Below, one piece after another: positions 13,040-50,739 of a stretch of DNA of 64,000 nucleotides. The position numbers were made by a program, and so were the translations under genes. This DNA comes from an uncultured Armatimonadetes bacterium (GTDB taxonomy: Bacteria > Armatimonadota > Hebobacteria > Hebobacterales > Hebobacteraceae). The stretch is from NCBI GenBank assembly GCA_963716175.1, contig OY970296.1, forward strand, positions 128,001-192,000, read 5' to 3'. How positions within the stretch are numbered: position 1 is the first letter of the stretch; every line of letters starts with the position of its first letter. The notes below the pieces were generated by a model. That model worked only from the letters and a program-made list of their open reading frames with translations. It searched no databases and was not told the DNA's origin.

Positions 13040-15169
13040 TCACGCATGGGCGGTTGTGATAACGATCTCCCGGAAGCCGGCGAAACCGTTGTCCACCCGG
13101 AAGCCCGCGCCGCCGCGGCCGAGCTTGGTGTCCTCGCCTGTAAGGACCCTCTTACCGTCGAGCGATGCGGTGATGGTGGTTCCGCGGACGGTGAGCGAGA
13201 GTCGGTGCAGTTCGTCTACCTCCCAGATGCACGGCATTTCTGCTAGCACCGTCTCGCCGTAGTAGTTGAGCAAGAGCTTGAGCGCGTCGCGCGTCTTGAC
13301 GAGCGCGATGAATCGTTCGAGGCCCTGGTAGCGGGCGATGATGCCAGCGGTGTCGGCGCAGTGGATGGAGAGTTGAACCGAAACAGTGTAGTCCGTCCAG
13401 TCTTCATTGCCGGTGGCGAGTATGCCGCACCCCTCATCCTTGCCCACGTAGGTCATCGCAGGGGCGGTCTTGCCAGAGCGGCCGACCACGCGGTCGGCAT
13501 CGACCACCCAGCCGGGAACAGTTCCGTCCTTCTGGGGAAGCTCATCGGGGATATGGATGTCGGGCGGTCCGGTGAAGAGGACTCTGTTCACAAAGAGCGA
13601 TCCGGCGGCGGATGGGCCCCCGGTGATCTCCACCCCAATGTCTTTGACCGGGAACCCGCGGTCGCCCGGTACGGGCAGGGTGAGAGCGAAGGGCGAGCCA
13701 GCCTTGAGCTGGACGGGCTCTCCATAGACCAGCTTCGTGCCCGTCACCTGACTGCCGTCCCCGTCGGCGGCGAGGCACCGAGCGAACAGGCGAATGCTCG
13801 CCTGGCTCTCGCACTTCCTCGCCACCCCCTCAAGCGTGACCACCTGCCCAGCGTAGACCTTCGGGGTTCCGACGATCCCATAGCCATAGCCAACAGGCTC
13901 TGCGAGAACCGGCGTGGACACGCGAACCGGATGGTTTGGCGCTGCCTCCTGGTAGGCTATCTCCATCACCCGCGTTCCGTTCGGTCCTGCGACATTCGCC
14001 ACCGCGCCCGTTCCAGGCATGCCCTGGTCGGTTCTCTCGACCATGTACCCGTGCCGGCTGCCGGGCAGGATGAAGTGATGCCAGGCGCCGCCCTTGGGCG
14101 CCTCCAGCTCGGGCCAGCCCATGATCTTCCGGCCGATGCGGGCAATGTGGAGGGCTTCCTGGAGGCAGTCGGAGACGTGGCGGCTGCCTTCGGCAGTGGG
14201 AAGGAGCATGCGATCGGCGAAGGGGCCCCGGAAGTCATAGTCCTTGCTGATGCCGTCGAGGCCTGCAACCAGTCCCATGACTGTGCCGACATTGGCGGCG
14301 TTGCAGTCGGTATCCCATCCGGCGGTGGTGACGATGGCCAGGGCCCGGCGGAAGTCGTCGAGCGCGTAGCTCCATGCCATCACCATGAGCGCGTGGTTCG
14401 GGATGACGTGGCAGCCTCCGCCGTAGCTGTCATAACCGTACTTTCCTGCGATCCGGTCATAGGTCCGATGCCAATCGCCGTCTTGCCGACACCAGGAGCG
14501 GACGTCGCGGTGGAGCTGCCCGACCAAGCTGTTCCGAGCGATGACGCTGACGCCGATATCGAGCAGCCTCTGCATATCTTTCTCGACGAAGGCGGCGGAA
14601 ACCATAGCGGCAACGACCATGGCGGCGTTGACCGCTTCGCCGTCATGGGAGACCTGCGCGGCGGGCCGCGCGAGGCGGGCGGCGAGCTGGGGATCGCCGG
14701 GAGCGACCAGGCCGAAGGCGTCGATGAAGATCTGGGCGCCGATCTGTTCGGCGACGACGCGGCCGTTGAGCGCGATGCTGCCGCTGCGGGGGCTCGGGAT
14801 GCCGTGCTTCAGGCGCAGGTAGGCGGTGTGCTCCGTGGACACGCCCAGGCCGCCCCACCAGAGGATCGTCTTGCCCTCAATGAGATAGTTGAGCCAGGTC
14901 TTCCCGAAGAAGTCGGGCGTGGTGTCGGCATAGCGGCCGGAGTCCTCTAGGGCGCGGACAAAGGTGAAGGTGCCGCTGATGTCATCATCGGGCACGACGA
15001 GGGGAACTCCGCGGTCGGCGGCGATGTAGTGATCGATGAGGCCCCATTTCTCAACCAGCCTTTGCTGTTCCCATCCCTCCACGGGGCGGGCGAGGTAGAC
15101 GCCAATAACCTTGCCGAGCACACCGGCGTAGACCTGTTGTTCGTAGTTGGCAATCTCAGATGCGGCCAT
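13040..15169 (-). CDS. ADP-ribosylglycohydrolase family protein with C-terminal beta-sandwich domains
   Basis: YAGVLGKVIGVYL, DDDISGTF, EQIGAQIFID, GWDTDCNAANVG. Confidence 0.85.
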   Translation of the reverse strand: MAASEIANYEQQVYAGVLGKVIGVYLARPVEGWEQQRLVEKWGLIDHYIAADRGVPLVVPDDDISGTFTFVRALEDSGRYADTTPDFFGKTWLNYLIEGKTILWWGGLGVSTEHTAYLRLKHGIPSPRSGSIALNGRVVAEQIGAQIFIDAFGLVAPGDPQLAARLARPAAQVSHDGEAVNAAMVVAAMVSAAFVEKDMQRLLDIGVSVIARNSLVGQLHRDVRSWCRQDGDWHRTYDRIAGKYGYDSYGGGCHVIPNHALMVMAWSYALDDFRRALAIVTTAGWDTDCNAANVGTVMGLVAGLDGISKDYDFRGPFADRMLLPTAEGSRHVSDCLQEALHIARIGRKIMGWPELEAPKGGAWHHFILPGSRHGYMVERTDQGMPGTGAVANVAGPNGTRVMEIAYQEAAPNHPVRVSTPVLAEPVGYGYGIVGTPKVYAGQVVTLEGVARKCESQASIRLFARCLAADGDGSQVTGTKLVYGEPVQLKAGSPFALTLPVPGDRGFPVKDIGVEITGGPSAAGSLFVNRVLFTGPPDIHIPDELPQKDGTVPGWVVDADRVVGRSGKTAPAMTYVGKDEGCGILATGNEDWTDYTVSVQLSIHCADTAGIIARYQGLERFIALVKTRDALKLLLNYYGETVLAEMPCIWEVDELHRLSLTVRGTTITASLDGKRVLTGEDTKLGRGGAGFRVDNGFAGFREIVITTAHA

Positions 15170-15232
15170 CTCTTGCCTCCTATAGTCGCTGTTGAACGCC
15201 GCTAGCGGCGCGCCATTTCCGAACTCCGGTCA

Positions 15233-17218
15233 CTAGAACCGCCCCCGGGTGGCGAGCGCAATGACATTCCAGAGCGAGCTGTTCAGCACATCGCCCACGA
15301 TCAGACCGACCGCTAGTGGGATCGTCCTTCGGTAGAGCCGAAGCCCGCCGTAGCGTATCACCGCCGACTTCAGCAGCCACGCGATGAGGAACGGGAATGT
15401 GCCCATGCCTTGAGGGAGGCTATTCGACAGCAGGTACCCCAACGGGTGCAGTGGCCACCACAGGAATCGCAACCGCATCAGCCCGAGCAGCACGCATACG
15501 ACTCCTCCCGCACCCACGTAGAACAAGCCCGACGCGCTCCCACCACCTCCGTTCGTGATGTCCCACCAGATGCTGCTGCCGTCATCCCGAAGCGCCCACG
15601 TCACGAAGTAGTCGCCTTTCGCGGCTCCTGTCCCGAGAAGACCGTAGTGGTACATGCCAGACAAGGTCACAAACATGCCTGTGGCCAGAGCAACCACGAA
15701 CGCGGCGAGCAGCAGATAGGTGAGTCGCCTCGGATTCGTGCCGTTCGCATCCGCGATCTTGAACGAGGTCAGCGTGTTGAGCGAGCAGGCGCTGAAGATC
15801 CTGCTCGGGAGCGGAGCGCCGGCCCAGTTCATCATGTACAAGCTGACGGTTTCCATGGGCAACAGGTTGCGCATGCCCACAGATGCACTGAAGATGTCGT
15901 TGAACCACCAGAAGAACGGATCCAGAGCGCCCTCTGCTTGCAGGCGAGCGTAGGCCAGATACACGCCGACTAGCAGGGCGACATAGGCCAGTCCGAAGGC
16001 AAGTCGGCAGCCCGAGAGGACGAAAAAGGCGACGAGCCAGGCGAAGCATGCCGAGAAGCCGAGCAGCGTCCACCGATACGGCAGGGGCTCGTCGCGGTCG
16101 CCTTCTGGAGAGCGGCGGCTGAGGGCAATGCGCAGCGCGCGGGACAAATGCCTCCGCGAGGTCCACAAGGCCCAGAGGGAGAGAGCTACTACCGCCCCGG
16201 TGGCCTGGTTGTACGGCGCGGGGAAGTCGAATCGCCACCAGTCCTGGGCCGAGCCGGGCTCTGCCCCGTATCCGATCGCCAGAGCGCACAGCCCGATCCG
16301 CACCAGCCAGAGAAACCAGACGGAGAACAGGAGATCCTTCGGGAGAATGTAGGCGAGAGAGATCAGCCACGGGTAGAGCCAGAGCTCGACCGTGCCAAGC
16401 GCCGAAGCCGGGCCAACCACTTGCCTGCCCATGACACTGGCCTGGAGGGGGAGCGAGGGGATCGCCGGATAACGCTGCGAGAGCTGGCTGATGAAGCCCA
16501 CGGCAGCGGCGAGCGCGAGGCCCGCCCAGAACGCTCTGCGGACAGGAAGGCGTCCAGCGTGGCTACCATCAGGCATCTCGTCCACGCTCTCGAGCGGAAT
16601 CTGCGCAAGGGGGAATGTCAGGCGCTCGTGTCTGATCCACTGCTTCTGAACCAGCACAAGGAGGCAGATGTTGGCGCCGAACAGGCAGAGCATGAATGAT
16701 GCCCAGGCCAGCAGCGGCACCGCCCACTCGACCCAGGGAACCGTGGCCCGGCCCAGGAAGTAGTCCTCCACCGCGGAGAGCGAAGAGGGTCCCCACCACG
16801 TTGGGATCAGGTTGAGGTAGGTAGTATCCCACTCCGGATGAGCGCGCGCCAGGTAGAAGTAGCTCGGGACCTTAGACAGCAGGTAGAAGAGCACGTTCAT
16901 GCCGAACACGGGCGTCACCACAAGCACGACTGAGTAGACCGTGAGTAGCTCCGGCCGGGTCAGCCCGAAACGGCGGAGAGCCGGCACGCTCGTGAGCGCT
17001 GTCAGCAGGAAGAGAACCGTAAGCGGCCAGGGCGCCGGCACACCGCTGGACCAGAAAAAGGGACCCTTCTGCCACACGATCTCCCCATAGAAGATCGCTG
17101 GGGCAGTCGCGGCCGCGATCAGGAGGGCGATGCCGGCCGCGCGCCAGGTCACGTCCCGGGTTTGGCCTGCAGGCTCACCAGCGTCAGCGCGGGTATCGGT
17201 ATCCGCAGCCTGCGGCAT
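15233..17218 (-). CDS. DUF6785/DUF6784-type polytopic membrane protein (OPT-like putative transporter), copy 1
   Basis: Many hydrophobic segments; KQWIRHERLTFPL, WWPLHPLGY, RYGGLRLYRR motifs shared with three paralogs. Confidence 0.8.
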   Translation of the reverse strand: MPQAADTDTRADAGEPAGQTRDVTWRAAGIALLIAAATAPAIFYGEIVWQKGPFFWSSGVPAPWPLTVLFLLTALTSVPALRRFGLTRPELLTVYSVVLVVTPVFGMNVLFYLLSKVPSYFYLARAHPEWDTTYLNLIPTWWGPSSLSAVEDYFLGRATVPWVEWAVPLLAWASFMLCLFGANICLLVLVQKQWIRHERLTFPLAQIPLESVDEMPDGSHAGRLPVRRAFWAGLALAAAVGFISQLSQRYPAIPSLPLQASVMGRQVVGPASALGTVELWLYPWLISLAYILPKDLLFSVWFLWLVRIGLCALAIGYGAEPGSAQDWWRFDFPAPYNQATGAVVALSLWALWTSRRHLSRALRIALSRRSPEGDRDEPLPYRWTLLGFSACFAWLVAFFVLSGCRLAFGLAYVALLVGVYLAYARLQAEGALDPFFWWFNDIFSASVGMRNLLPMETVSLYMMNWAGAPLPSRIFSACSLNTLTSFKIADANGTNPRRLTYLLLAAFVVALATGMFVTLSGMYHYGLLGTGAAKGDYFVTWALRDDGSSIWWDITNGGGGSASGLFYVGAGGVVCVLLGLMRLRFLWWPLHPLGYLLSNSLPQGMGTFPFLIAWLLKSAVIRYGGLRLYRRTIPLAVGLIVGDVLNSSLWNVIALATRGRF

Positions 17219-17369
17219 GGCGATTACTGCACCCCCGACCCAAATCCGAGGAGGCCACGCGAGAGGACACACCTGCAGTCTATGCCATCAAGGACGCGGT
17301 GACAGCGGAGCGTCCGCCGTCGCGGCTGCTCCGCCCGATAGGCCCTATGCAGGCATTGTGCGGCGGGCG

Positions 17370-18434: not shown

Positions 18435-18674
18435 CCTGGTCCAACCTCCTCTTAGGCTAGACATCAACACGACATCCCACGGGCAACTGCCTTGACCCTT
18501 GTCCCCTCCCTTCACTCACGCGTGTTGAACAAATCCGTTGAGATCGCCTCAGCACCGGCTCCTCAGCTCGGCCGCGTACTGGGGCTATGCGAACTGCCTT
18601 CGTGGTCCTGACACCACTCTCGGTGCACCGTTCGGCTTCCGTGATGCCAAGACGCCGGTTCCTCCACCGCTTGC

Positions 18675-18745
18675 ACTCTACGCTCAACTCCCCCAGAGAA
18701 GAATGCACGATTCTCTTGACTATTTGCACTATTCTGCTATATCGT
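18675..18745. promoter_or_regulatory. Divergent promoters with putative AraC operator
   Basis: Minus-strand -10 TAGAGT (18680-18675) with weak -35 TTCTTC; GAATGCACGATTC box; ATTCT repeats 21 bp apart; plus-strand TTGACT-N18-TATCGT. Same layout at 49744-49814. Confidence 0.6.
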
Positions 18746-18823
18746 GTCGGCCGACATGGCGGCAGACCAACGCGGCTTCCCTCCTCCGGATGCCTCGAAG
18801 CTGAGCCAAGAAGGAGCGATCTC

Positions 18824-19651
18824 ATGGCAGATCTTGACGACCGGGAAGAAGCAGAGCCGTTGGCAGTGACCGGTCTCGGCGTCCTCTGGGTACGCCAGCT
18901 CGGGTTCACCATAGACCGGGCCCATGGGCTCGGCCAATACTTGCTGCTGCGCTTCTATACTCCGATGTTGGTGCGCACTGTCGCCGGGCTGGTGCACGGA
19001 GAGCCTGGCGACTGTCTTCTCTACGAGCCAACGTTCCCTCAGTGGTTTACCGGGCGCGGTGTGGGATACATTGACGACTGGGTGCATATCAAGGGCCCGG
19101 CGATGCCTGAGCTTGTCGCTCGTTACCGGGTGCCGGCGAACACGCTCTTCCGGCCCCGCGAGGTTGACTTTTTCCCGTCCATGCTGGAGGCGATCAACCG
19201 AGAGCTACATCGAAGAGAGCTGTTCTGGCAGGACTCCGTCCGGACGCTGGTCGAGGCACTACTGTTGAGGCTGGGCCGGCTGGCGAACGAGCAAGAACGC
19301 TTCGACCTAAGGCCGGCCGACCTGGCCCGTGCCGACGTGTTCCGGAGCATCCGCATGCAGGTTCACGAGCGGCTGGAGGAGCGGTGGGCAGTACCGAGGA
19401 TGGCGGACCTGGCTCACGTGAGCCCCTCTCGCTTCGCCGTACTCTACAAGAAGCTGTTCGGCGTCAGCCCCATAGAGGATCTCATTGACGCTCGGCTGGC
19501 GAGAGCCCGGGCGCTGCTGACGAACGCGGGCCTGTCCGTTGGCGAGGCGGCCGCTCAGACCGGATTCACCAGTCTCTGCTACTTCAGCCGACTCTTCCAC
19601 CGTCGGGTGGGCAGCACCCCGAGGGACTACTGCCGCCGCGACCTCCAGTAA
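18824..19651 (+). CDS. AraC-family transcriptional regulator
   Basis: Cupin-like N-terminus; C-terminal double HTH (VGEAAAQTGFTSLCYFSRLFHRRVGSTP); AAGGAG SD. Confidence 0.92.
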   Translation: MADLDDREEAEPLAVTGLGVLWVRQLGFTIDRAHGLGQYLLLRFYTPMLVRTVAGLVHGEPGDCLLYEPTFPQWFTGRGVGYIDDWVHIKGPAMPELVARYRVPANTLFRPREVDFFPSMLEAINRELHRRELFWQDSVRTLVEALLLRLGRLANEQERFDLRPADLARADVFRSIRMQVHERLEERWAVPRMADLAHVSPSRFAVLYKKLFGVSPIEDLIDARLARARALLTNAGLSVGEAAAQTGFTSLCYFSRLFHRRVGSTPRDYCRRDLQ

Positions 19652-20465: not shown

Positions 20466-23345
20466 CTACTCGAATGGGCTGATCACCCCCGCCTCCAGGT
20501 CCGTCACCTTCACCCACCACAGCACCGGCGCCTGGTCGGCCGCGATCTTCACGCTCTGCATCCCAGGGGCCCCCACGGCCAGGAACCGCAGCGTCCAGCG
20601 CTGGCCCGCCTCGGTGGCGCCGATCCACTGCCACCCCCCGGGAGCCCCATTCTGGATGCCATCGTAGTCCGCCAGCGCCACCCCGTTGACTGCCACTTTC
20701 GTGGCGTCGTCGTCCCCGTCGCCGTTCTGGGCGCCGGCCCAGTTCTGCGCACATACCTGCACCCACAGCACCCCGCTGGCGGCGAACTTGTACTCCTGCC
20801 ACCAGTAGACTGCGACGAGCTTGCCTATGGGATCCACCCAGTAGGGTCCGCCCAGAGAGGCGCCGCCCGCTCCCGCCGCGCGCCCTTGCGCCCGCTCGTT
20901 CGGGTGGACTTCGAGGAGAACCTGGGGCACCACGGCCGGCTGAGCAGTCGGCTGAGACATGATCATCTCGGTGATGCGCTCCCGATAGCTATCTAGCGCC
21001 TGCTCGACCGCGGTGAGACAGCCCGGACCGTCCTGGATGCCAGCGAAGTGCTGAGTCTGACCAGTGTACCAGTCACCGCCGCTGATCGGGTACTCCGGCA
21101 CGTCATCTCTGAGCGACTGCAGCAGCGCGTCCGCGCCATCGGCCCACGCGATAAGAGTGGGCAGACCGCTCGCCCGCGCCTCGCGCGAAAGGCGATCGAG
21201 GGTGGCGGCGTAGCGGTAGTCGGTGATCCCCTGGCTCGCCCACTCGTACTTGAGCGTGGCCACGGGCCCAGCGGGGGAGGGATAGGTGTAGCGCCAGTGA
21301 TTGTTGAACGGGCTGTAGGGGAAGGGATCGAAGACGTCGCTGTCGAGCCAGTCGTAGTGCCATTCCCAGGCGCCGTCACTGGGCCACTTGAGCTGGTAGA
21401 AGCCATACACTAGGCGCAGGTCGCCGCCGGTGTTGTAGAACCAGATCGGCTTGCCCTGAGAGAGGGAACCGCTGATCAACCCGGCTGAGTTCGACCAGGG
21501 GTGGGTCTGCATGATGTCCAGGGCATCCGCGAGCGGGGTGTAGTCCACCCCCTCTTGGTCGTCCCGCATCACGGTCACGGTAGTGGTGGCCCCGGCGACC
21601 TGATGGGCGAGGTCGCAGTACTGCATGGTGTCCGCGAAGTTACGGTTCCACGGCTGGATCCCGCTCTCCCGGGGCTCGTCCAAGAGGCACATCACCAGCG
21701 GAGTGCCCACTGTATTTCCCCAGGCCAAGATCCTGCCGATGACATCCTTGTACGCGTTGTTGAAGTTGGTGTCGAACTCGCTCACGGAACTGTACTCCCG
21801 GATACGGTTGGCGAGGTCGATCGTCACCACCTGGCCCTTCCAGGCCCCGCCGAAGCCGGCATCACCCATGGCCGCCAGGTAGCGATTGGGCTCGGTGAAG
21901 TCCAGCGTGCCCACGTGGCCGCTAGTGGGGTTGATATCCAGGCAGCACGGGCATGGGAACTGAAGGGAGTTGAAGCCGTGCTTCCTCATATCCGCGAAGT
22001 CGAGGCGCAGCATGTCATCCCCCGCGCTCGCCATATCCGGAAAGAACTCGTAGCAGTAGCGTTGGTCTGGCGACATGTAGTACCAGCCATAGGCCATGTC
22101 GTTCGCCGCGTCCAACTGGAAGGGCCAGACCACCACCGTCAGCGGCAGCACCAGCGCCTGAGCCGAGGTGTTCAGCGTGACCGTGCCGGCGTAGGTCCCG
22201 GCAGGAGTGCCGGCCGGTACGTGTACGGTGAGCCAAAACTGCTTGGTCACCTGGCTGGCAACCGCTATGGGGAAGTTGCTCTGCAGCAGCCGCGGCTTCC
22301 ACGTCAGCACTCCCGAACCGAAAACCTCGCTGTCGGCAGTCGCCATGTAGCGCACATGCCGCCGCTCGATCTCCGCGCTGGGGATAGTATGCCCGTGCCC
22401 GTCGCTCAGGTCGCTTACCTGGAGGGAGACATCGGTGAGGTCATTGAGGGGCCGAATGGCGAAGCTGATTGACCGGTACTCGCCCTGAGAGGCTGCAGCG
22501 CTGACCGCCAACGCGGGCCGCGGGGAGGGCGGCAGGGTGTCCGGGTAGCAGGCATCCATGGTCGCCACCGGCCAGGCGGCATAGCCGCGCAGGCTCTCCT
22601 CGCCGGTAGGTGTGAAGGTTAGGTCCTGCGGCACGTTGATGTAATAGGCGGTCTCGAACTGCACCCGACGTTGGGCCTCCCAGTCCGCGATCCGGGTGCT
22701 CATCTCACCCGCGAGGTCGGTGGGGTAGGCTATCAGGGAATAGAGCCAGCACTGGACGAAATGCAGGTCGAGGCTGCCGTCGGTGACGCCAATGGTGAAG
22801 CTATAGGCGGGGAAGTTGGCGTTTTCGAACTGCTCCCAGGCGGATCGGCTCAGCGGGTAGTCCTCGTCCATGCCCCGATAGTAGTAGCTGGTGCTGTAGA
22901 AGGTGCCCGAATCCATCGGCGCATCCACCTGGAGCGCCCCTTCCGCCCAGACTTGCCAGTTCCTCACCGGCATGGCACTGGGATTGCCCGACCGGGCGAT
23001 CACATAGACCGTGTAGCTGTCATTGGGCAAGTCCACCCGGAAATCGAGATCGGAGTCACCAGGGTAACAGACGTTGCTGCAGGGGATCCCCCGCACGAAA
23101 TCGCGGGTCATGTCATCCGGACCGCCATAGTCGCCGCTGACACGAATCTGATCCGCCTGGCTATAGACCCATCCGAAAGGCATGGTGGTCGGATCCACTG
23201 GGTAGTTGTCGCTGTCCGACTCGGTTACCCGGAAGAAGTCCCTCCACCGGGGCGAGGTGGCGGTGCCGAAGTCGAACTTCCAGATGTTCCGGACGGCGTC
23301 GGCTCCAGGGTCATCATGAACCGTCTCCAGGCGGACGTAGTCCAT
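20466..23345 (-). CDS. Glycoside-hydrolase-like protein (GH123/DUF4091-like core), apparently 5'-truncated, with extra C-terminal domain
   Basis: KQFWLTVHVPAGTPAGTYAGTVT, LLDEPR, EWASQGITDYRY. No signal peptide or SD; frame begins mid-domain (IFVYMDYVRLE) at a junction near 23356. Confidence 0.65.
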   Translation of the reverse strand: MDYVRLETVHDDPGADAVRNIWKFDFGTATSPRWRDFFRVTESDSDNYPVDPTTMPFGWVYSQADQIRVSGDYGGPDDMTRDFVRGIPCSNVCYPGDSDLDFRVDLPNDSYTVYVIARSGNPSAMPVRNWQVWAEGALQVDAPMDSGTFYSTSYYYRGMDEDYPLSRSAWEQFENANFPAYSFTIGVTDGSLDLHFVQCWLYSLIAYPTDLAGEMSTRIADWEAQRRVQFETAYYINVPQDLTFTPTGEESLRGYAAWPVATMDACYPDTLPPSPRPALAVSAAASQGEYRSISFAIRPLNDLTDVSLQVSDLSDGHGHTIPSAEIERRHVRYMATADSEVFGSGVLTWKPRLLQSNFPIAVASQVTKQFWLTVHVPAGTPAGTYAGTVTLNTSAQALVLPLTVVVWPFQLDAANDMAYGWYYMSPDQRYCYEFFPDMASAGDDMLRLDFADMRKHGFNSLQFPCPCCLDINPTSGHVGTLDFTEPNRYLAAMGDAGFGGAWKGQVVTIDLANRIREYSSVSEFDTNFNNAYKDVIGRILAWGNTVGTPLVMCLLDEPRESGIQPWNRNFADTMQYCDLAHQVAGATTTVTVMRDDQEGVDYTPLADALDIMQTHPWSNSAGLISGSLSQGKPIWFYNTGGDLRLVYGFYQLKWPSDGAWEWHYDWLDSDVFDPFPYSPFNNHWRYTYPSPAGPVATLKYEWASQGITDYRYAATLDRLSREARASGLPTLIAWADGADALLQSLRDDVPEYPISGGDWYTGQTQHFAGIQDGPGCLTAVEQALDSYRERITEMIMSQPTAQPAVVPQVLLEVHPNERAQGRAAGAGGASLGGPYWVDPIGKLVAVYWWQEYKFAASGVLWVQVCAQNWAGAQNGDGDDDATKVAVNGVALADYDGIQNGAPGGWQWIGATEAGQRWTLRFLAVGAPGMQSVKIAADQAPVLWWVKVTDLEAGVISPFE

Positions 23346-23355
23346 GTAGACGAAG

Positions 23356-33983: not shown

Positions 33984-34056
33984 TGCCGGGTCCCAGAATC
34001 GAACTGGGGACGCCGCGATTCTCAGTCCCGCGCTCTACCACCTGAGCTAACCCGGC
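33984..34056 (-). tRNA. tRNA-Phe-like gene with anticodon GAG (Leu); possibly a pseudogene
   Basis: Cloverleaf: acceptor GCCGGGT/ACCCGGC, D arm GCTC/GAGC, anticodon loop CTGAGAA, 5-nt variable loop, T arm CCCAG-TTCGATT-CTGGG; G:G mismatch in anticodon stem; ends A-CCG. Confidence 0.85.
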
Positions 34057-40980: not shown

Positions 40981-41992
40981 CTACTGGAAGCCGAATACGT
41001 AACCGGCGCCGCGGAGCTTCCCGCCGCTTGGGTCCCAGGACCGCGGGGCGTTGGCGATGATGGCATCGGCCGCCATCCAGGCCGCGTGGCCATCCCCGAA
41101 GCCCAGGTTGCTGCCGCCCATGTGCCTGGTGAACGGCTTGCGGGTGGTGCTGTCGGTCCACCAGCTCCCGTTCAGCTTGGCCTCCTCGGCGACGCCACAG
41201 CTCTCGCCCTCCTCGCAGGTGGCCGCGCAGCACCCCGGCTCGCCGCCGCAATCGGGAAAGCACCTTTCTGGGAAGGCGATCAGACTGACCATCCAGACAT
41301 CAACCTGGGCCCCGCCGTCGCCGCACACCACAAACCAGGCGGGATCGTCAATCTGGGAGGTCTTCAGGTCATAGTTGGTGGTGGTGGCGATGCTCTGGTC
41401 GAAGGCCCCCGTCTCCCCTCCCGACTGCTTCTGCTGCCCGATGGAGTCGGTGACCGAGCCGCCCCAGCCAGGCGGCCAGGCGAAGCAGCAGGGGCCGCCA
41501 GGGCAGGTGGTGCTGGCCCCTGGGCCCCATTGGCCCTGAGTGGACACCAGGTACCCGAACCAGTCGGGGCCCGGGACGATCCAGCGCGTACCGTGAGTCA
41601 TTTCGCGCGCTTGGGCACCGCCACACATCCCGGTTTTTCACATACTCGTCCAGGATCACCGGCCAGCCCAGATATGGGTTGGGATGGGCGAGATTGTCCT
41701 GAAGGCAGCCGACGACAACCTCCGGCGGCGTGCCGCTCCCTGGTCCGGTGTCGAAGTAGGCGAGCACCTCGGCACGGTGCTCGCTGGGCGGGAAGGCGTC
41801 GTAGTCGCCAAGGTACAACTGCAGCGCCATGGCGATGTTCTTCACATTGGACAGGCACTGAATCTTGCGGGCCAACTCGCGCGCCCGCGCGAACACGGGA
41901 AACAGCATTGCCGCCAGGATCGCGATAATAGCGATCACCACCAGCAGCTCGATGAGGGTGAACCCCAATCTGCTTCGGCCTCGAGACATCAT
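40981..41992 (-). CDS. Prepilin-type DUF1559-like H-X9-DG protein, copy 2; +1 frameshift near 41602
   Basis: [26 protein letters not shown] in ORF 41369..42016; [11 protein letters not shown] and [15 protein letters not shown] in ORF 40981..41628. Removing one A gives CPSARMTHGTRW. Confidence 0.88.
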
Positions 41993-42240
41993 CTTGGGCC
42001 TCCTGTCTCTCTCCAAGCATCACCGTCTGTCAGTTCGGACAACAGGACAAGGCACGAGGGGGAGTGATCGGGCTTTCCTTCACCTCCTCTCATTCGAAGC
42101 GGGCGTGCCCAGGCTTGATCGCCCACAGATGTGAGTATAGCCGGAACCCGCCCAGGAATCATTGCCAAAGCGCCCCTGTTAACCGCCCGTGGAACCGGCA
42201 TGAACGGCTTCCAGGCTCGTGCGGTGAATCCTTGTCCTCT

Positions 42241-42500: not shown

Positions 42501-43544
42501 TCACTTGGCAGGAGGGATGAGCGCGTCGCGAAGGGGCTCTACCCACTTGCCTGCGTCGATATTGTAGACGACAAAGTCGTCGTCGAATTGCCAGTAGGCC
42601 CAGCTCCAGCCGTGCGACTCGGCCAGCCGGGCGACGAACGAGGTCCACCGCACGCGCGAATCCATGTCGGCCCGGTCATAGGCGCCGAACTCACCCAAGA
42701 AAACCGGTCTCTTGTGCTGCTTCGCCCACTCCTGCGCGGCCAGGAAATCGTGCTCGATCGCGCTCCGCTCGGACTCCGTCGCGTTCCACTCGTAGCCGAC
42801 GTCTTCCCCGCGGCCTTCAAAGGCCGCCCCCTGGTGGGTGAAAGTGAAGGGCTCGTAGTAGTGAACCGTGACGATGATGTCGCGATCATCCTCCGGCAGG
42901 ATGAACTCCCCCAGCTTCTTGATCGAGTTCCACTCGCCGGGCCCGATGATGACCGTCCGCCGCGGGTTCGACTCGCGTACGATGGCCAACGCCTCGACGA
43001 GATAGGGGTTCCACATCTCCGGCGTCAGGGCACGGTTGGGCTCGTTCAGCAACTCGAACAGGACCGTGTCAGGCGCGCTGGAATAACGCTTGGCCATCTG
43101 TCGCCAGAAAGCCAACCACTTCGGCTTCAGCCCCTCTGGATCCCGCGCCATGGCGTTGTACTCGTGGCAATCGAGGATCACCATCAGGCTGTTGGCCAGG
43201 GCGCGCTCCAGCGCCCAGTCGAGCATCGCGAACCATCCCCCCTCCACCCGGTAGCCCTCCCCGGCGTCGGCCATGCGCTCGAAGGGGTGCAGCGCGATGC
43301 GCACGTGCGAGAAGCCCGCCTGCCTGATCAGCCGGAAGTGCTCGTCCTGCATCCTGCGCTGGTCCGGAGCCGACCATCCTGGGTCATACCCGAAGACGTT
43401 CACGCCTCGTCCCAACCGTTCGTTCTGAGCGAAGACGTCCATCTCTCTCCCCCGCGGTCCGAGTGGCTGTCCGCCTCTCCCTGTCTCGCTACAAGCGGCA
43501 AGCATAGCACAGAGCGCGAGCGCTGTCCATCGAGTCGCCTTCAT
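42501..43544 (-). CDS. GH5 endoglucanase-like lipoprotein
   Basis: Lipobox LAAC; LGRGVN, FSHVRI, ELLNEP (acid/base), VHYYEP, FLGEFG (nucleophile), WAYWQF. Confidence 0.9.
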   Translation of the reverse strand: MKATRWTALALCAMLAACSETGRGGQPLGPRGREMDVFAQNERLGRGVNVFGYDPGWSAPDQRRMQDEHFRLIRQAGFSHVRIALHPFERMADAGEGYRVEGGWFAMLDWALERALANSLMVILDCHEYNAMARDPEGLKPKWLAFWRQMAKRYSSAPDTVLFELLNEPNRALTPEMWNPYLVEALAIVRESNPRRTVIIGPGEWNSIKKLGEFILPEDDRDIIVTVHYYEPFTFTHQGAAFEGRGEDVGYEWNATESERSAIEHDFLAAQEWAKQHKRPVFLGEFGAYDRADMDSRVRWTSFVARLAESHGWSWAYWQFDDDFVVYNIDAGKWVEPLRDALIPPAK

Positions 43545-43817: not shown

Positions 43818-45779
43818 CTACTGGCCCAGTAGCGCGTGCGATAACACCGTCCCAGCTACACTGACGCAGGCATCGCCCACGATCAAGCCCAGGAAGAACG
43901 GGAGCGCCCGCTGGTGCGCACGGAGGCCCCCGTATCTCAGGAGCGACGCCTTGATCACCCAGGTAAGGGTGATCGCTGGCAGCAGCGCATCGACGGCCCA
44001 GCTGAAGGCCAGTGGAAATGCCATGGGGTGAAGTGGGAAGATTGGGATTCGCAGTTTCAGGTTCATCAGTGCCAGTGCGATCACCGCGCCGATGCCGATG
44101 CCGATGGTGCCGCTCCAGTTGGGCCCACCGGGGTCGCGCAACCAGGTGGCGAGCTTGTTCGACATGTCACTGCAGATGGCGAGCAGGTCGGCTGGGCTCT
44201 TCGCGGCCATGCCGAACTGGTAGCCGATATGCACGCTGGCCCAGAAGTAGCATAGCATGATGAGGGGGACCGCGAGCATGATGGCCCAGGTGAAGTGGCT
44301 CGCCCTTACCACACCGCGCTCGGCGATGCGCAGTCCTTCGAGTTGGATCGGCGCAGGGTTTGCCTCCTGCTCGAACATGAAGGGGCGCAGTATTGCGATC
44401 ATCCCAAGTCCGCGCGGCCCGATGGCGCGCGTCCCAGGGAACTGGGTGAGCACGAACTCCGGCATGGTGCCGAACATCCAGTGCGCCGGCGGCCCGATCT
44501 GGGCGCGCATGCGCACGATCGCCATGATCATGGTGAAGTGAAGGAAGAGAAACGCGGCAGTGATGGGCGCCGCCATGCCAGCACGACCGTAGCACCACCA
44601 GAGAAAGCCAAGCCCGGCGACCAAGCCCAGGAGCGCGGTCCGATAGCTGAACCCTTCCTCACGGTCATCGAGCGAGGATCGCAATCCCAGCGCTCTCCGG
44701 ACCACCTGCGCCAAGTAGCGCCGATCCAGCCAAGCGACCGAGGCCATCAGGGCGAGATAGGCGCCGACGTTCTGCTGGTCGCCGTAGGGGAAGCCGCCCC
44801 AGGGGCTGACGAGCCACCCTCCCATGCGGCTGAGCATGTACTCCGCTTTCCAGAACAGGTTGAAGACGATGAGGGAAAAGGCGAAATCGAGCGGCATGAG
44901 GTAGCACAACCCGATCGACCATGGTCCCCAGTATAGCTCGACTCCCCGGATGGCATCCCACGGTGGGTTGTTGGAAAGAAGGTTCTCTATCTCGACGGCC
45001 GTCGGGATGACCGGAGCCGCCGGGACAAACGCGTGCAGAATGCCGAGGGTGCCGATCCCGGCCGAGATACCGATTCCCAGCCACCAGAGGCGGTCTCGGA
45101 ACAGCCTCCCGCTCGGGTCGGTCAGATGGAGAGGCACGGTGGTCATGGGGAAGGCGAGCTTCTCCTCGCCCGACCAGCGGCGGCGGACGATAACGCTCAG
45201 GCAGAGCGTGACCCACAGCGTTGCCGAAACCCACCCCGTCCACCAGAGCGCGGGCATCAGCCACGCGCGCAGCACCTCCAACCGGTAGGCGGTACTGCCG
45301 CCAAGGACGAACCCCTCCAGCGCGGCGCGGTCTGTCACCACCATTCCGGGTGGCAGGTTCGGCCACATCATCTCCGCCCAGCCGTTGCCCGGTGTCGCCG
45401 CCCAAATCGGGTAGGTGATGGCCGCGGGGAGTGAACCGCCCCACTGCCAGATCCCCCCGGTGATGCTCATGCAGGTGGCGAGAACGAGGTAGATGGTGAT
45501 CAGCTCTCCAGCGGAGAACGCCCATGCGGGCTTCCAGCGCCGGAGGAGAGCGTTGGCCGCCGTGAAGGCAGCGAGCATACCCACCGCGAAGCTGTTCAGA
45601 GACTGCGCCGCGCCGTTACCGCCCTCTATCCAGTCGCCCCAGACCGCGAACAGCGTCACTGCCGGCACCAGCAGCACCACCGCGACGACTGCCCGCAAGC
45701 GGAGAGGAGGGCGCCGGTCGGCCGCAGCAACCAGCCTGGGTGGCGTGCGCTCACCCGTGTCGGGCGAGACAGGCCTCAA
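43818..45779 (-). CDS. DUF6785/DUF6784-type membrane protein, copy 3
   Basis: RRRWSGEEKLAFPM, GFPYGDQQ, FPLHPMA, RYGGLRAH. Confidence 0.82.
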   Translation of the reverse strand: MRPVSPDTGERTPPRLVAAADRRPPLRLRAVVAVVLLVPAVTLFAVWGDWIEGGNGAAQSLNSFAVGMLAAFTAANALLRRWKPAWAFSAGELITIYLVLATCMSITGGIWQWGGSLPAAITYPIWAATPGNGWAEMMWPNLPPGMVVTDRAALEGFVLGGSTAYRLEVLRAWLMPALWWTGWVSATLWVTLCLSVIVRRRWSGEEKLAFPMTTVPLHLTDPSGRLFRDRLWWLGIGISAGIGTLGILHAFVPAAPVIPTAVEIENLLSNNPPWDAIRGVELYWGPWSIGLCYLMPLDFAFSLIVFNLFWKAEYMLSRMGGWLVSPWGGFPYGDQQNVGAYLALMASVAWLDRRYLAQVVRRALGLRSSLDDREEGFSYRTALLGLVAGLGFLWWCYGRAGMAAPITAAFLFLHFTMIMAIVRMRAQIGPPAHWMFGTMPEFVLTQFPGTRAIGPRGLGMIAILRPFMFEQEANPAPIQLEGLRIAERGVVRASHFTWAIMLAVPLIMLCYFWASVHIGYQFGMAAKSPADLLAICSDMSNKLATWLRDPGGPNWSGTIGIGIGAVIALALMNLKLRIPIFPLHPMAFPLAFSWAVDALLPAITLTWVIKASLLRYGGLRAHQRALPFFLGLIVGDACVSVAGTVLSHALLGQ

Positions 45780-45846: not shown

Positions 45847-46908
45847 CTACTCCAGTGGCTCGGCCTGCAGCTCCCGCCCCTCCCGCACCGCCTGCTGGCA
45901 CAGCAGGGTCAGGTAGTGGTCCTGGCAGGCCTCGGCGAGGGGATAGAACTCCCGGCTCGTGCGCACGTACTCGTCCATCCTCACCAAACAGGCGGCGATC
46001 GCGATCTCGTCGTCGGAGAGAGGCGCAGGTGCGAAGGGGTTAGTGTAGAGCCACTCGCCTCCTGCCTGGATGCCCCTCAGGTAGAAGCCCTCGAGGTTGC
46101 CGTTGGCGCCGGTGGTGTCTCGGCGAAGGTCGAGCGCGATGGGGGTGTGGAAGTCCTTGAGATAGTAGACCGTGTCATTGACGATCTCACCTCGCTCGCC
46201 CCGGATCAGCACGCGGCGGCTGCGGATCCAGCCGAAGTACTGATCGCCGGTGAAGTCGAGAAGACCGAGGCGGTCACCCCAATCGAAGAAGACGATATCC
46301 TGCTCCGAGTCTCTGATCTGCTCCTGGGCGGGCGGGCCCTGCCGCCCGGCCCCGGCAACGATGGGCGCGGCGAAACGTCTGCCGCTGATCTTGGGCATCT
46401 CGAATCCAATGCCCAGGAATCTCCGGATCAAACTGATCCCGTGATAGCCGTGGGCCACTGAGATTTGCGCCTGAGTCGGCCGTCCCAACAGTCCCTGCTC
46501 AATCACCGCCGAGCAGGCCTGATGGTGGGGCTGGGCCCAGTATTGCTCCGCGACCTGGATCTTCGCGCCCTTCCGTGTCAGGGCAGTGACCTCTCGGAGC
46601 TGCTCCAGATCGGGCGCAGGCGGGGTCTCCGAGAGGATGGGCATCCCTCGCTGGGAGAGCTCCTTCAGCAGCACGGGATTGCTTGTCCAGCTCACGGAGG
46701 TTACCACAAACGACGGCGATGTCTTGAGCAGTTCCTCGCTGTCCGCGCACACGCGCACCCCCCAGGCCTGCTCTAGGGGCCCGCGCTTCTCGGGGTTGCG
46801 CACGACTACACCGGTGATGCGGAAACGCGCGGGCAAGGCCCGGGCGATGCGCAGGTAGAACTCGGTGCGCCATCCCGCTCCGACGATGCCGAATTCGATC
46901 GGTCTCAC
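45847..46908 (-). CDS. Gfo/Idh/MocA family oxidoreductase
   Basis: FGIVGAGWR Rossmann motif, ILSETPP, QVAEQY, HGYHG. Confidence 0.85.
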   Translation of the reverse strand: MRPIEFGIVGAGWRTEFYLRIARALPARFRITGVVVRNPEKRGPLEQAWGVRVCADSEELLKTSPSFVVTSVSWTSNPVLLKELSQRGMPILSETPPAPDLEQLREVTALTRKGAKIQVAEQYWAQPHHQACSAVIEQGLLGRPTQAQISVAHGYHGISLIRRFLGIGFEMPKISGRRFAAPIVAGAGRQGPPAQEQIRDSEQDIVFFDWGDRLGLLDFTGDQYFGWIRSRRVLIRGERGEIVNDTVYYLKDFHTPIALDLRRDTTGANGNLEGFYLRGIQAGGEWLYTNPFAPAPLSDDEIAIAACLVRMDEYVRTSREFYPLAEACQDHYLTLLCQQAVREGRELQAEPLE

Positions 46909-46920
46909 GTCTGCCCTCCA

Positions 46921-47988
46921 TCAACGCAGCTTCGGAAGATTCCGCCCATCACGGCCGCCGCCCCTTCCAGAATACGGCTTGCCCGGCTCCCAGTTGTTCG
47001 CCGCGGGCGGGGTGAAGCGTGCCAGCGGCAGCTCCACTTGGCACTGGTGCTTGCAGGACAGGTAGGCCGCCTCACACATCTCCAGGGCAGCCAGCGAGCT
47101 CTCCGGGATGGCATAGTCGGTGCTCCCCTCATCCATCTGTCGGGCCATCGCCTCCAGATGATCCCGGTGCCCCTTCCCGGCCGGCCGAACATCAACCTTC
47201 TTGCCTCCCGGGTGCTGCTCGTTCAGGAGCAGGTACGCGCTCTCCCAGGCCCAGAACTCGATCATCCCCTTCGCGCCGACGATGTGGAAGACCGTGTCCT
47301 TGCCCTTTCGCGTTGTGGTGACATAGTCGCCGGTGTTCATCACGAAGCGCACGCCATTGCTCGCCTGCACATAGGTGACGGCAACCGTCTCCACCTGCAT
47401 TCCATCCCGGTAGGTCCGCGATGAGCTGTCACCGGCCGCCATCACTGACTGCGCGGCCACCGCTCCGTTGAGCATATGAGCGTAGTTGAGCCAGTGGATG
47501 CCGGCGTTGATGATGTCCCAGCCGTTACACTGGATCTCGATCAGTACCAGCTCCCCGATCTCTCCGGACCTCACCCGCGCCACGATCTCCCTCGCATGAG
47601 TCGCCACCAGCAGCCCATGCGGCACCGCCATGGGCAGCCCTCGGCTTCGGATCGCACTCAGGATCGCGGCGCCGTCCGCCGTCGTCTGCGCCAGGGGCTT
47701 CTCGACCAAGATCCCCTTCAGGGGAAGCTCCAACGCGGCCTCCGTGATCTCCCTGTGTGACGGCGCCCAAGTGGAGACGCATACGGTATCAGTGGGACAT
47801 TTCCGGAACATCGCCTCATGGCTGTCGAAAACCGCAAGGCCGGGGTAATCTCGCGCCAGCGCCTCGCGGGCGGCGGGGCTGATGTCTGCTACCGCCAGCG
47901 GCTGATAGCAGTCGGAGGCCTGGAGGGCATTGATACTCAGCCGTCCGCCCGCCCCGCCGCCGACCACACTCGCCGTGTACTGCTTCAT
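46921..47988 (-). CDS. Gfo/Idh/MocA family oxidoreductase
   Basis: VVGGGAGG, ILVEKPLA, GEIGEL, NAGIHW. Confidence 0.85.
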   Translation of the reverse strand: MKQYTASVVGGGAGGRLSINALQASDCYQPLAVADISPAAREALARDYPGLAVFDSHEAMFRKCPTDTVCVSTWAPSHREITEAALELPLKGILVEKPLAQTTADGAAILSAIRSRGLPMAVPHGLLVATHAREIVARVRSGEIGELVLIEIQCNGWDIINAGIHWLNYAHMLNGAVAAQSVMAAGDSSSRTYRDGMQVETVAVTYVQASNGVRFVMNTGDYVTTTRKGKDTVFHIVGAKGMIEFWAWESAYLLLNEQHPGGKKVDVRPAGKGHRDHLEAMARQMDEGSTDYAIPESSLAALEMCEAAYLSCKHQCQVELPLARFTPPAANNWEPGKPYSGRGGGRDGRNLPKLR

Positions 47989-48444: not shown

Positions 48445-48478
48445 CTTCGTGCTGGACTGCAGCTGCGGGGCGCGCCTC

Positions 48479-49500
48479 TCAGCACCCGCAATTCGGGTCG
48501 TCACCGGGCTGACAGTACCGGCAAAAGCAACTGTCACAGCAGGCGGTGCCTCGGAGATCGCCGAAGGTGTCCTGCTTGGCCCTCGGCCTCCCCGGGAGTT
48601 CGCGTAGATGGCGTCGGCGGCCATCCAGGCGGCGTGGCCATCCAGGAAACCCATGTTGCTGCCGCCCATGTGACGGGTGTACTGCTTCCTCAGGCTGGGG
48701 TCGCTCCAGAAGCGGACCTGCATCTCGTGGGTTAGCCCGCACTGCTGGGTGGCCGAGCAGTTCACCCAATCCGCGCCACAACTGGCATCGGCCTCGACCT
48801 TGCAGACGTCGGGGAAAGCGAGATCGGAAAGTTTCATCCACTCGGCCCTAACGCCGGCGTCGCCGGTGACGACGAACTTCGCGGCATCCGCCACCGCGCT
48901 GGGCTTGAAATCGCGATAGTAGGAGGCGGTAGTGCCTATGGTTTGCTCGAAGGCGTTGGCCACCGCCTCACTGGGACCTGCCCTCGCAAATCCCGTCCGG
49001 CCTTGCAGGGCGGAATCGGTGACGCTGCCGCCCCATCCCGACGGGAATGTATCGTCGCCTGCGAAGGCGTCACCTGCGCACGTTTCCCCGCCCGATTTCG
49101 CGACCCAGTACCCGAACCAGTCTGAGGCGGGGATGATGGCTCTTGCTCCGTTGGCGGACTTGGCGCTCGGGCAGCGCCAGACATCGCGGTTCTTGACGTA
49201 CTCGTCCAGGACCACCGGCCAGCGCAGGTAGGGGTTCTTGCCGGTGGCGCTGGGCACGCTGCCACAGAAGAAGTCGATCACCTCCTGGCGGTGCTCCTTG
49301 GGCGCCAGCCTGTCGTAGTCTGTCAGATACATCTGGAACGCCATCGCGATGTTCTTCACATTCGACAGGCACTGAATCTTGCGGGCCGACTCCCGCGCTC
49401 GCGCGAACACCGGGAACAGCATGGCAGCAAGGATCGCAATAATCGCGATCACCACTAACAGCTCGATCAGCGTGAATCCGCTGCGTCTTAGCCTTACCAT
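48479..49500 (-). CDS. Prepilin-type DUF1559-like H-X9-DG protein, copy 3; probable -1 frameshift near 48595
   Basis: [12 protein letters not shown]..., [15 protein letters not shown]. Adding one C gives a Cys-rich end ...[27 protein letters not shown], like the ends of copies 1 and 4. Confidence 0.88.
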
Positions 49501-49743
49501 GATGGTTTTGCCTCCTCTCAAGCTAGACCTGCGCACAGCCTCCCGCCGACAACTGCTCTGGCCTGTCTCACCTCCCTTTGCTCACTGGTCTTGCCCAAAT
49601 CCGTTACTCTTGCCTTACTTGCCACTGGCCACTTAGCCAGCCTTTGGTGCCCAGGCGAACTGCCTCCATCCGCTCCTGGCATTGCACCGCATGCAGCAGG
49701 AGGCTTCCGGGCCGCCGCTGACACGACCCCCTGGTGCTTCTTC

Positions 49744-49814: not shown

Positions 49815-49881
49815 GGTGGTCAGCATCGGAACGGTAGGAGGCGGCCTCTCACATTTCCGAGGGCCGAGAACGGAGCTTCGG

Positions 49882-50739
49882 GTGAGTGATCCAGGCGAGC
49901 GAGAGGAGACAGGCCGAGTGGTGGTCACGGCCCTCGGCGTCCACTGGGTGCACGAGTTGGGCTACACCGTAGACCGGCCCCACGGGGTGAACGAGTATGT
50001 GCTGCTGCGGTTCTATAGCCCGATGTTGGTGCGCACTGCCGCTGGGCTGGTGCACGGGGAACCTGACGACTGCCTTCTCTACGCTCCAAGGTTCCCGCAG
50101 TGGTTCTCTGGGCGTGATGTAGGACATGCGGACGACCACATGCATATGGACGGCCCAGAGGTGCCTGAGCTCGTCAGTCGCTTCCGGTTGCCGGTGAACA
50201 GGCTCTTCCGGCCCCGCGAGGTTGACTTCATCCCGCCGATGATCACGGCGATCCGCCGAGAGCTGTACCGAAGGGAGCCGTTCTGGCAGCATTCTGTTCG
50301 GACGCTGGTTGAGACGCTGTTGCTGAGGCTCGGCCGGCTGGCGGACGAGCAGGAACGATCCGGCCTGACGCCGGCCGACCTGGCCCGCGCCGAGGTATTC
50401 CGGAGCATCCGCATGCAGGTTCACGAGCGGCTGGAGGAGCGGTGGACAGTGGCGAGCATGGCAGAGCTGGCCAATCTGAGCGTCTCTCGCTTCGGTGTGC
50501 TCTATAGGAAGCTCTTCGGCGTCAGTCCTATCGAGGATCTCATCGACGCGCGATTGGCCAGAGCGCGCGCGTTGCTGGCGAACGCAGCCCTGTCCGTTGG
50601 CGAGGCCGCGGCCGAAGCCGGCTTCAGGAACGTCTGCTACTTCAGCCGCCTGTTCCACCGTCGGGTGGGGAGCACCCCCAGAGACCACTACCGCCGCGAC
50701 CTGCCGGAACGCGACAGCACCAAGGCGGCGGGGCCGTAG
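49882..50739 (+). CDS. AraC-family regulator, close paralog of 18824..19651
   Basis: LLRFYSPMLVRT, VFRSIRMQVHERLEERW, YFSRLFHRRVGSTP; GGAG SD, GTG start. Confidence 0.92.
   Translation: MSDPGEREETGRVVVTALGVHWVHELGYTVDRPHGVNEYVLLRFYSPMLVRTAAGLVHGEPDDCLLYAPRFPQWFSGRDVGHADDHMHMDGPEVPELVSRFRLPVNRLFRPREVDFIPPMITAIRRELYRREPFWQHSVRTLVETLLLRLGRLADEQERSGLTPADLARAEVFRSIRMQVHERLEERWTVASMAELANLSVSRFGVLYRKLFGVSPIEDLIDARLARARALLANAALSVGEAAAEAGFRNVCYFSRLFHRRVGSTPRDHYRRDLPERDSTKAAGP

Follow-up and report, generated by a model that had tools for sequence, protein, structure and literature searches.

Prepilin-type H-X9-DG proteins, AraC regulators and DUF6785 transporters in probable nutrient operons of an uncultured Armatimonadota bacterium

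We analyzed a window of 64,000 nt, the whole stretch G000:C1:128001-192000 (contig OY970296.1), from an uncultured wetland bacterium of the Armatimonadota. The genome is a single contig of 4.56 Mb with ~65% G+C and a completeness of 90.85%, and its proteins have close relatives that carry the label Armatimonadota. Three gene modules within positions 13,040–50,739 of the window are each headed by a gene for a prepilin-type protein carrying a C-terminal H-X9-DG motif, here called pilin-like, and each contain a membrane protein of the DUF6785/DUF6784 type, here called the transporter. We find that the association between pilin-like genes and transporter genes in this genome is real, ordered and recurrent, yet facultative. 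The link between pilin-like genes and regulators is stronger: the pilin-like gene is the promoter-proximal gene of ligand-responsive nutrient operons, whichever importer these operons use. Structure prediction places the transporter on a remote branch of the OPT family. Based on these observations, we suggest, with a probability of about one half, that the modules are ligand-induced nutrient operons of interchangeable parts, which combine a filament-type protein bearing a variable head with an OPT-fold importer.

Association with transporters and regulators

Genes were counted on our own map of 3707 genes, for which open reading frames (ORFs) were picked greedily by length and by G+C content at third codon positions (GC3). 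Pilin-like genes were identified on this map with our own hidden Markov model (HMM), which may overlook distant forms. By these counts the genome contains 55 pilin-like genes and 47 DUF6785 loci. A pilin-like gene is found directly upstream of a transporter gene, on the same strand, at 8 of the 47 loci. When the labels were permuted 2000 times across the genome, the mean number of such pairs was 0.41 and the maximum 4. Permuting them 2000 times inside blocks of 60 genes, which preserves regional crowding, gave a mean of 1.0 and a maximum of 5, and none of the shuffles reached 8. Within a distance of four genes, 19 of the 47 transporters have a pilin-like neighbor, compared with a shuffle mean of 5.3 and a maximum of 12. 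The initial annotation of this DNA, which had proposed the two proteins as an uptake pair, named co-localization merely at chance as the outcome that would speak against it; the 8 direct pairs, against 0.41 or 1.0 expected, exceed chance under both schemes. Where the two genes are paired the order is fixed, with the pilin-like gene first. The pairing also recurs outside this genome. Of 20 transporter loci taken from 12 further genomes of the phylum, 7 have a pilin-like gene no more than 6 kb away, and in 4 the two genes are neighbors. Among 69 loci in a species collection, 15 hold a pilin-like gene, mostly those of close relatives (11 of the first 25 loci).

The regulators are tied to the pilin-like genes more tightly. 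All 13 matches to the AraC DNA-binding domain (HTH_18) in the genome lie 92–1585 nt from a pilin-like ORF, whereas a random place would do so in 6% of cases. Seven of the AraC genes diverge from the pilin-like gene closest to them; the others either diverge from a second one or are placed in tandem upstream. None of the 13 adjoins a transporter gene. The single cobalamin riboswitch of the genome (84.6 bits) also abuts a pilin-like gene (G000:C1:3994288-3995169), which is followed downstream by CobT, CobS and a BtuF-like lipoprotein; there is no exported enzyme in this operon (G000:C1:3990907-3995370; locus L142:4908-9371) and no TonB-dependent receptor nearby. A thiamine pyrophosphate (TPP) riboswitch had no match in the 90.85% complete genome. 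Pilin-led operons that contain enzymes only also exist, and in module 1 and the pilin-led operons L110, L105 and L118 no exported enzyme is present. It is because 13 of 13 AraC regulators and the one cobalamin riboswitch attach to pilin-like genes that we assign these genes the promoter-proximal position.

The transporter and pilin-like families

The transporters of modules 1, 2 and 3 (T1, T2 and T3) each match DUF6785 (PF20581) followed by DUF6784 (PF20580), both above the gathering score. The fold was modelled on T2, and T1 is called OPT-fold as a paralogue of T2. An AF2 model of T2, built from 44 sequences, has a pLDDT of 86.9. Compared with approximately 48,000 PDB representatives, the model matches only barley YS1 (7wsr_A), with a Z-score of 24.6 and a root-mean-square deviation of 4.0 over 547 of 600 residues; the runner-up chain has a Z-score of 5.9. 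Foldseek aligns the same model to 7wst_A with an E-value of 1.1e-8 and a TM-score of 0.60–0.65. The sequence identity of the window's transporters to YS1 is 11–12%. YS1 is a member of the OPT/Yellow-Stripe-like (YSL) family (PF03169, TC 2.A.67). The Pfam OPT model matches three places in the genome, all of them DUF6785 loci outside the window, one of which scores over the cut-off (28.5 versus 25.8 bits). Because the predicted fold of T2 matches YS1 and the OPT model hits three DUF6785 paralogues, we place DUF6785/DUF6784 in the OPT family, as a far-removed branch that has the transporter fold. A structural comparison with OPT/YSL had been proposed as a check in the initial annotation, with the lack of a transporter fold as an outcome that would speak against it; in the model, the whole membrane domain matches OPT/YSL.

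No other importer-like family of the genome comes close in number to DUF6785 with its 47 loci. For comparison, there are 12 genome-wide matches to BPD_transp_1, the permease domain of ABC importers, and 2 to the TonB-dependent receptor family (TonB_dep_Rec), at 1.05 and 1.76 Mb, both outside the window. Of 81 genomes sampled across the phylum, 65 carry the DUF6785 family, mostly with many copies each. The neighbors of the transporter were annotated at 17 additional loci, drawn from 40 retrieved regions. Sugar-active or sugar-metabolic enzymes lie near 10 of these 17, among them GH4, fucosidase, heparinase-like, sulfatase, Gfo/Idh/MocA and xylose-isomerase-like barrel proteins. Other neighbors are nitrilase-type hydrolases, peptidases, aminotransferases and URO-D-like proteins (uroporphyrinogen-decarboxylase fold). 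Since the neighbors include these classes as well as sugar enzymes, the family looks like a general importer for organic nutrients, beyond glycans. The URO-D-like genes lie at most four genes from DUF6785 in 4 of the 17 loci (L075, L077, L084 and L085).

The DUF6785 loci are unevenly distributed: 27 of the 47 sit at 0–0.5 Mb and 4.19–4.46 Mb, near the contig ends, in ~19% of the genome. On a circular contig, the two end regions would make up a single large catabolic region. Tandem DUF6785 pairs are found at 1146755-1150753 and 3239377-3243418. At several loci (L070, L072, L073 and L112), IS110-family transposases, an rve integrase or an IS200-like transposase adjoin transporter or pilin-like genes, and such mobile elements could be vehicles of module shuffling. 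Nine of the 47 DUF6785 loci are divided between reading frames, which points to indels introduced during assembly.

The pilin-like proteins of the window (P1–P4) match N_methyl with 33.6–39.7 bits, and P1, P3 and P4 match TIGR02532 with 32.4–34.5 bits. In the alignment, the prepilin leader ends in Gly, followed by F-T-L-I-E with Glu at +5 and a hydrophobic helix. The C-terminal H-X9-DG motif is visible in every row; the second half of P2 scores 18.3 bits with TIGR04294, for which the cut-off is 19. Matches to DUF1559 (PF07596, SBP_bac_10) reach 24.0–42.6 bits against a cut-off of 23.3 and cover only positions 2 to 33–42 of 268, so that the likeness to this model is confined to its first 30–40 positions. 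GspG (TIGR01710) matches the N-terminal 62–95 positions with 35.6–41.4 bits, below its equivalog cut-off of 88.85. In the structural comparison, the matches of an AF2 model of P1 are weak (VIA, Z ≤4.0) and nearly all are type IV pilins or pseudopilins. Despite the Pfam name SBP_bac_10, no solute-binding-protein fold was recognized in the P1 model.

Across 43 paralogues there is no variation in the 45 residues that follow the cleavage site, and in the codons for identical residues the third positions agree in 63.5%. The stem is thus under strong purifying selection, because the protein is invariant while synonymous sites vary. Gene conversion was considered as the origin of the identical stems and ruled out, since synonymous sites differ. 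Such a constraint implies that the paralogues must all match a single shared partner, in the simplest case the same filament core or the same assembly platform. The middle region of the head is variable and cysteine-rich. Genes for type IV-filament machinery lie in other parts of the genome: 2 prepilin peptidases, 9 secretins, and 7 full-length and 14 partial matches to the T2SSE ATPase. A canonical type IV filament cluster containing pilin-like ORFs lies at G000:C1:4137734-4147814, with a prepilin peptidase at 4143008-4143379 and a T2SSE ATPase at 4146663-4147814; it is a candidate for the shared assembly machine of the paralogues. In four wetland or sediment runs, the summed contig depth over the conserved stem-coding region (window positions 41572-42115 and 49188-49731) is 10–100 times that of the flanks, and many contigs break or join there. 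We therefore think that many paralogues or relatives in those communities share this stretch.

Gene content of the modules

Domains were annotated by a Pfam scan of 41 ORFs of the window together with NCBIfam. The pilins, transporters, AraC regulators and enzymes reported in the initial annotation were all recovered at their coordinates. Among the 41 ORFs, the scan found no ABC solute-binding protein, no SusC/D and no family of pilus assembly, which agrees with the earlier description of the modules as free of such genes. Signal-peptide calls in the following are crude hydrophobicity readings of the N-termini. The starts of the four pilin-like genes were placed at the ATGs immediately 5' of the G/FTLIE cleavage motif.

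Module 1 is transcribed from the minus strand, divergently from an AraC-family regulator (18587-19651, plus strand; HTH_18 67.0 bits, HTH_AraC). P1 (17370-18515, likely start 18434) has N_methyl and the DUF1559 N-terminus and scores 32.6 bits with TIGR02532 and 25.2 bits with TIGR04294 (cut-off 19). It is followed by T1 (15233-17272; PF20581 301.9 bits, PF20580 97.7 bits) and by an ADP-ribosylglycohydrolase of 709 aa (13040-15169; PF03747 170.6 bits), in which no signal peptide was seen. Neighboring genes identified by Pfam encode a PfkB kinase (8555-9868, plus), a second ADP-ribosylglycohydrolase (9957-11438, minus) and a GH13-like protein (11558-13012, plus).

Module 2 also lies on the minus strand. 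Its pilin-like gene, P2 (40981-42016, start 41992), is frameshifted near 41604: in the window a stop follows after 207 codons, and the N_methyl/DUF1559 and H-X9-DG parts fall into separate ORFs (41369-42016 and 40981-41628, respectively). In contigs from two further public runs, one base of a short T run is missing at position 41604, and without the extra base P2 reads through 336 aa with both motifs. Since both sets of contigs lack this base, the break is an assembly error or a strain-specific lesion. Downstream lie a GH42-like protein of 1408 aa (36613-40839; Glyco_hydro_42M and Glyco_hydro_42, both weak), whose N-terminus is hydrophobic and signal-peptide-like, and T2 (34596-36539; PF20581 391.5 bits, PF20580 66.5 bits).

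Module 3, again on the minus strand, is divergent from a second AraC-family regulator (49816-50739, plus; HTH_18 59.2 bits). For the AraC regulators of the window, the best NCBIfam match is AraC, under the equivalog level. P3 (48415-49536, likely start 49500) has N_methyl and the DUF1559 N-terminus; its TIGR04294 score of 18.7 bits is slightly below the cut-off of 19, with the motif visible in the alignment. It is followed by two Gfo/Idh/MocA oxidoreductases (45847-47988; Pfam) in which no signal peptide was seen, by T3 (43818-45779; PF20581 360.8 bits, PF20580 80.7 bits) and by a GH5 protein (42501-43544; PF00150 147.4 bits). In the GH5 protein a Cys stands behind a hydrophobic stretch, as in a lipoprotein-like signal peptide.

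A fourth pilin-like gene, P4 (52746-53786, likely start 52845, plus; TIGR04294 19.4 bits), lies in a run that contains no transporter. A fourth DUF6785 transporter, T4, extends on the plus strand from 63331 to the end of the window (whole gene G000:C1:191331-193226; 190.1 bits on the part inside the window) and is divergent from a GH123-like gene (60777-62618, minus; Pfam). Between P4 and this gene, a bacterial alpha-2-macroglobulin homologue of 1430 aa with MG2, A2M and bait-region domains and a signal-peptide-like N-terminus is encoded at 55321-59613 (plus). The interval between modules 1 and 2 (20466-23345, minus; 27058-28401, plus; 29278-33779, plus; 33984-34056, minus) encodes a protein of 959 aa whose N-terminal domain is of the GH123 type, a radical SAM enzyme with B12-binding domain, secreted proteins of the beta-helix and DUF4832/GH42-like types, a metallophosphoesterase and one tRNA. 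Outside the modules, at 1179-8169 (plus), a cluster of MacB/FtsX-type permeases with an HlyD-like adaptor and an ABC ATPase resembles an efflux or lipoprotein-release system.

Models for the modules and related systems

In the model that we prefer, nutrient operons of interchangeable parts, the AraC-type regulator beside the operon, usually divergent from it, would control its expression, as its position suggests. The first gene would supply a prepilin-type H-X9-DG protein that is cut by a prepilin peptidase and processed by the remote type IV-filament machinery, and the head of this protein would act in the envelope, either catching the nutrient or passing it inward ahead of whichever inner-membrane importer serves the operon. 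The exported GH42-like protein and the GH5 lipoprotein, as judged from their signal peptides, would trim polymers outside the cytoplasm. DUF6785/DUF6784 would then import the product as a secondary carrier of the OPT family; here the fold comes from the model, and substrate, direction and ion coupling are presumed. Finally, the ADP-ribosylglycohydrolase, the Gfo/Idh/MocA oxidoreductases and the kinase would complete the breakdown in the cytoplasm. We propose the sequence of outside trimming, import and cytoplasmic finishing because the GH42-like and GH5 proteins have signal-peptide-like N-termini and the ADP-ribosylglycohydrolase and the oxidoreductases do not. Capture or passage in the envelope is favored over export because several pilin-led operons have no exported enzyme and because a vitamin-sensing switch suits an uptake part.

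Several observations weigh against this model. Within four genes, 28 of the 47 transporters have no pilin-like gene and 35 of the 55 pilin-like genes have no transporter, and only 8 of the 47 transporters are directly preceded by a pilin-like gene. These unpaired copies are the reason why we call the association facultative. None of 29 DUF6785 loci labelled Poribacteria and none of 4 labelled Fervidibacter has a pilin-like neighbor detectable with our HMM, with its possible blindness to distant forms. The pilin heads do not co-diversify with the transporters (Mantel r 0.05, p 0.27, 8 pairs, low power); a shared phylogeny of cognate pairs, suggested as a check on the initial annotation, was thus not seen in this small set. 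At the sequence level, T1 and T2 have no match to OPT (PF03169) at E-values up to 10, and the DUF6785 family profile does not retrieve YS1 from the PDB. The AF2 model of P1 has a middling pLDDT of 69.6; no ligand-binding fold was recognized in it, and Foldseek returned no match at an E-value of 0.001 or better. Our gene map is home-made, based on ORF length and GC3. Finally, a study of an alginate cluster proposes type II export of enzymes as the role of its pulG-like gene, which has 67 homologues (PMC13274419). Of the originally proposed uptake pair, the enriched adjacency therefore stands and the idea of a fixed two-part system does not, given the 28 unpaired transporters: pilin-like protein and transporter are better seen as independent modules, frequently used together, than as an obligatory complex.

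The export role leads to a different explanation, in which the pilin-like proteins are variant major pseudopilins of type II secretion systems, each operon providing a variant of its own with which the shared secretion machine exports the hydrolases of that operon, and DUF6785 is an independent importer. The best named sequence match of the family is indeed the GspG N-terminus, with 35–41 bits, and the genome has its 9 secretins together with numerous T2SSE ATPases. Modules 2 and 3 and the loci L113, L117 and L119 contain large enzymes whose N-termini resemble signal peptides, and for the pulG-like gene the same role is proposed in print (PMC13274419). The GspG matches are, however, far under the 88.85-bit cut-off and restricted to the N-terminal helix. 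Module 1, L110, L105, L118 and the riboswitch operon hold no exported enzyme to secrete, and a B12-sensing switch on a secretion part has no obvious logic. We consider this explanation doubtful for the family, and it may apply at some loci.

The pilin-like proteins might instead be unpolymerized periplasmic binders, tethered to the inner membrane by the pilin-type helix, that pass the ligand to the importer as in the bindosome of Sulfolobus. A class III/prepilin-type signal is common to the pilin-like proteins and the archaeal sugar-binding proteins (PMC3047682). The pilin-like genes stand directly upstream of importers, in the position that belongs to the binding protein in ABC systems, and in the B12 operon the pilin-like gene is located alongside a BtuF-like gene. 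The core of the head is pilin-like, although by a weak match, and not of a periplasmic-binding-protein fold; the fold search lists mostly pilins, with Z ≤4.0. OPT-family carriers are not known to use binding proteins, and the lack of co-diversification described above also argues against a dedicated binder. Moreover, a 45-residue stem that is invariant in 43 paralogues suits packing into a common fiber better than a simple anchor. Such tethered binders therefore seem improbable.

About as improbable, in our view, are substrate-induced adhesive pili that hold the cell on an insoluble polymer and have no role in transport. Type IV pili commonly serve as adhesins, the heads are variable, and the genes are tied to polysaccharide lyase and hydrolase loci. 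Adhesion is not needed in the cobalamin-riboswitch operon or in operons for small soluble compounds (L110 and L111), and it would leave the enriched adjacency to importers unaccounted for. It is very improbable that the co-localization is a by-product of two numerous families (47 and 55 copies, most of them unpaired) crowded into the same regions, with 27 of the 47 transporters in the two end regions, because the block shuffles that preserve such crowding never yield 8 direct pairs, the order is fixed with the pilin first, and further families of the phylum show the pairing as well.

The preferred model, operons of interchangeable parts, shares features with several known systems. Compared with OPT/YSL transporters such as barley YS1 (7wsr/7wst), DUF6785 has the same predicted fold across nearly the whole protein and, in three paralogues, a weak sequence likeness, and its expected role is that of a secondary-active importer. 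It differs in being multiplied 47-fold and in lying beside glycoside hydrolases and catabolic enzymes, not beside genes for peptides or metal chelates. Compared with the polysaccharide utilization loci (PULs) of Bacteroidota, both are co-oriented gene sets with their own regulator, an exported glycanase, an importer and cytoplasmic enzymes, and both occur many times per genome. In the modules described here the pilin-like gene comes first and an OPT-fold carrier would perform the import. No SusC-like or SusD-like protein, and hence no SusC/SusD pair, was found in the 41 ORFs; genome-wide there are only the 2 TonB_dep_Rec matches, and for SusD a genome-wide search was not made. The initial annotation had called the modules a possible PUL equivalent. 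This holds as far as the modules join regulation, hydrolases for export, an importer and enzymes of the cytoplasm without SusC/D, and it fails in that the pilin-like protein and DUF6785 do not form an obligatory pair.

For the pilin-like family, paralogues of DUF1559/H-X9-DG proteins span the Planctomycetota, Verrucomicrobiota and Lentisphaerota. A related case is that of the pulG-like paralogues of Verruconatronum alginivorum, one of which, a pseudopilin of the alginate cluster, is over-expressed on alginate (PMC13274419). Such families share with ours the prepilin N-terminus, the C-terminal H-X9-DG motif, dozens of paralogues per genome and an occurrence in polysaccharide clusters. Here the host belongs to the Armatimonadota, the partner is often DUF6785, and all AraC regulators and the B12 riboswitch are attached to the family. 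The Sulfolobus bindosome likewise consists of nutrient-uptake proteins with a pilin-type signal and a filament-like machinery, the Bas assembly (PMC3047682). The archaeal proteins are ABC solute-binding proteins that serve ABC transporters, whereas the modules have a pilin-like head, an OPT-fold carrier and no ABC importer. Pili have also been proposed for the uptake of macromolecules such as polysaccharides in planctomycetes, with the players unknown, in a passage of PMC12673574 that reviews Boedeker 2017. The competence pili of DNA uptake and the proposed planctomycete pili share with our model the idea that a filament captures its ligand outside the cell and carries it across the outer membrane.

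Our literature search found no paper mentioning DUF6785 and none linking Armatimonadota with a pseudopilin, and the term H-X9-DG surfaced in unrelated work only. DUF1559 is mentioned in only four of the papers searched, and the passage of PMC5352709 that concerns it assigns it no role. Two large families with no assigned function, about 100 genes together in this genome, are placed at the heart of its catabolic loci.

Armatimonadota are known for the degradation of polysaccharides. If the OPT-fold family imports glycan fragments, it would be a new major class of carbohydrate importers and the main nutrient gateway of the phylum. If the pilin-like family captures nutrients, this would explain how large nutrients cross the outer membrane despite so few TonB-dependent transporters. 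The copy at the cobalamin riboswitch is a member with a predicted ligand and is directly testable. As a tentative extension, to which we give less weight than to the model itself, envelope uptake in Armatimonadota, and probably in those PVC (Planctomycetes–Verrucomicrobia–Chlamydiae) phyla that also have the H-X9-DG family, may run through a single type IV filament whose stem is invariant and whose dozens of ligand-specific heads can be exchanged, each turned on by a regulator or riboswitch of its own. As the nutrient gate of the outer envelope, this filament would replace TonB-dependent transporters and feed a greatly expanded branch of OPT-fold carriers that has diverged in sequence. It is equally speculative that these carriers would import glycan fragments and other organic nutrients, not peptides or metal chelates. 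The modules follow a PUL-like logic without the SusC/SusD pair and may represent an undescribed envelope uptake route: a regulator, a pilin-like protein and an unstudied importer, combined in an uncultured wetland member of the Armatimonadota, point to a way of taking up nutrients that has not been described.

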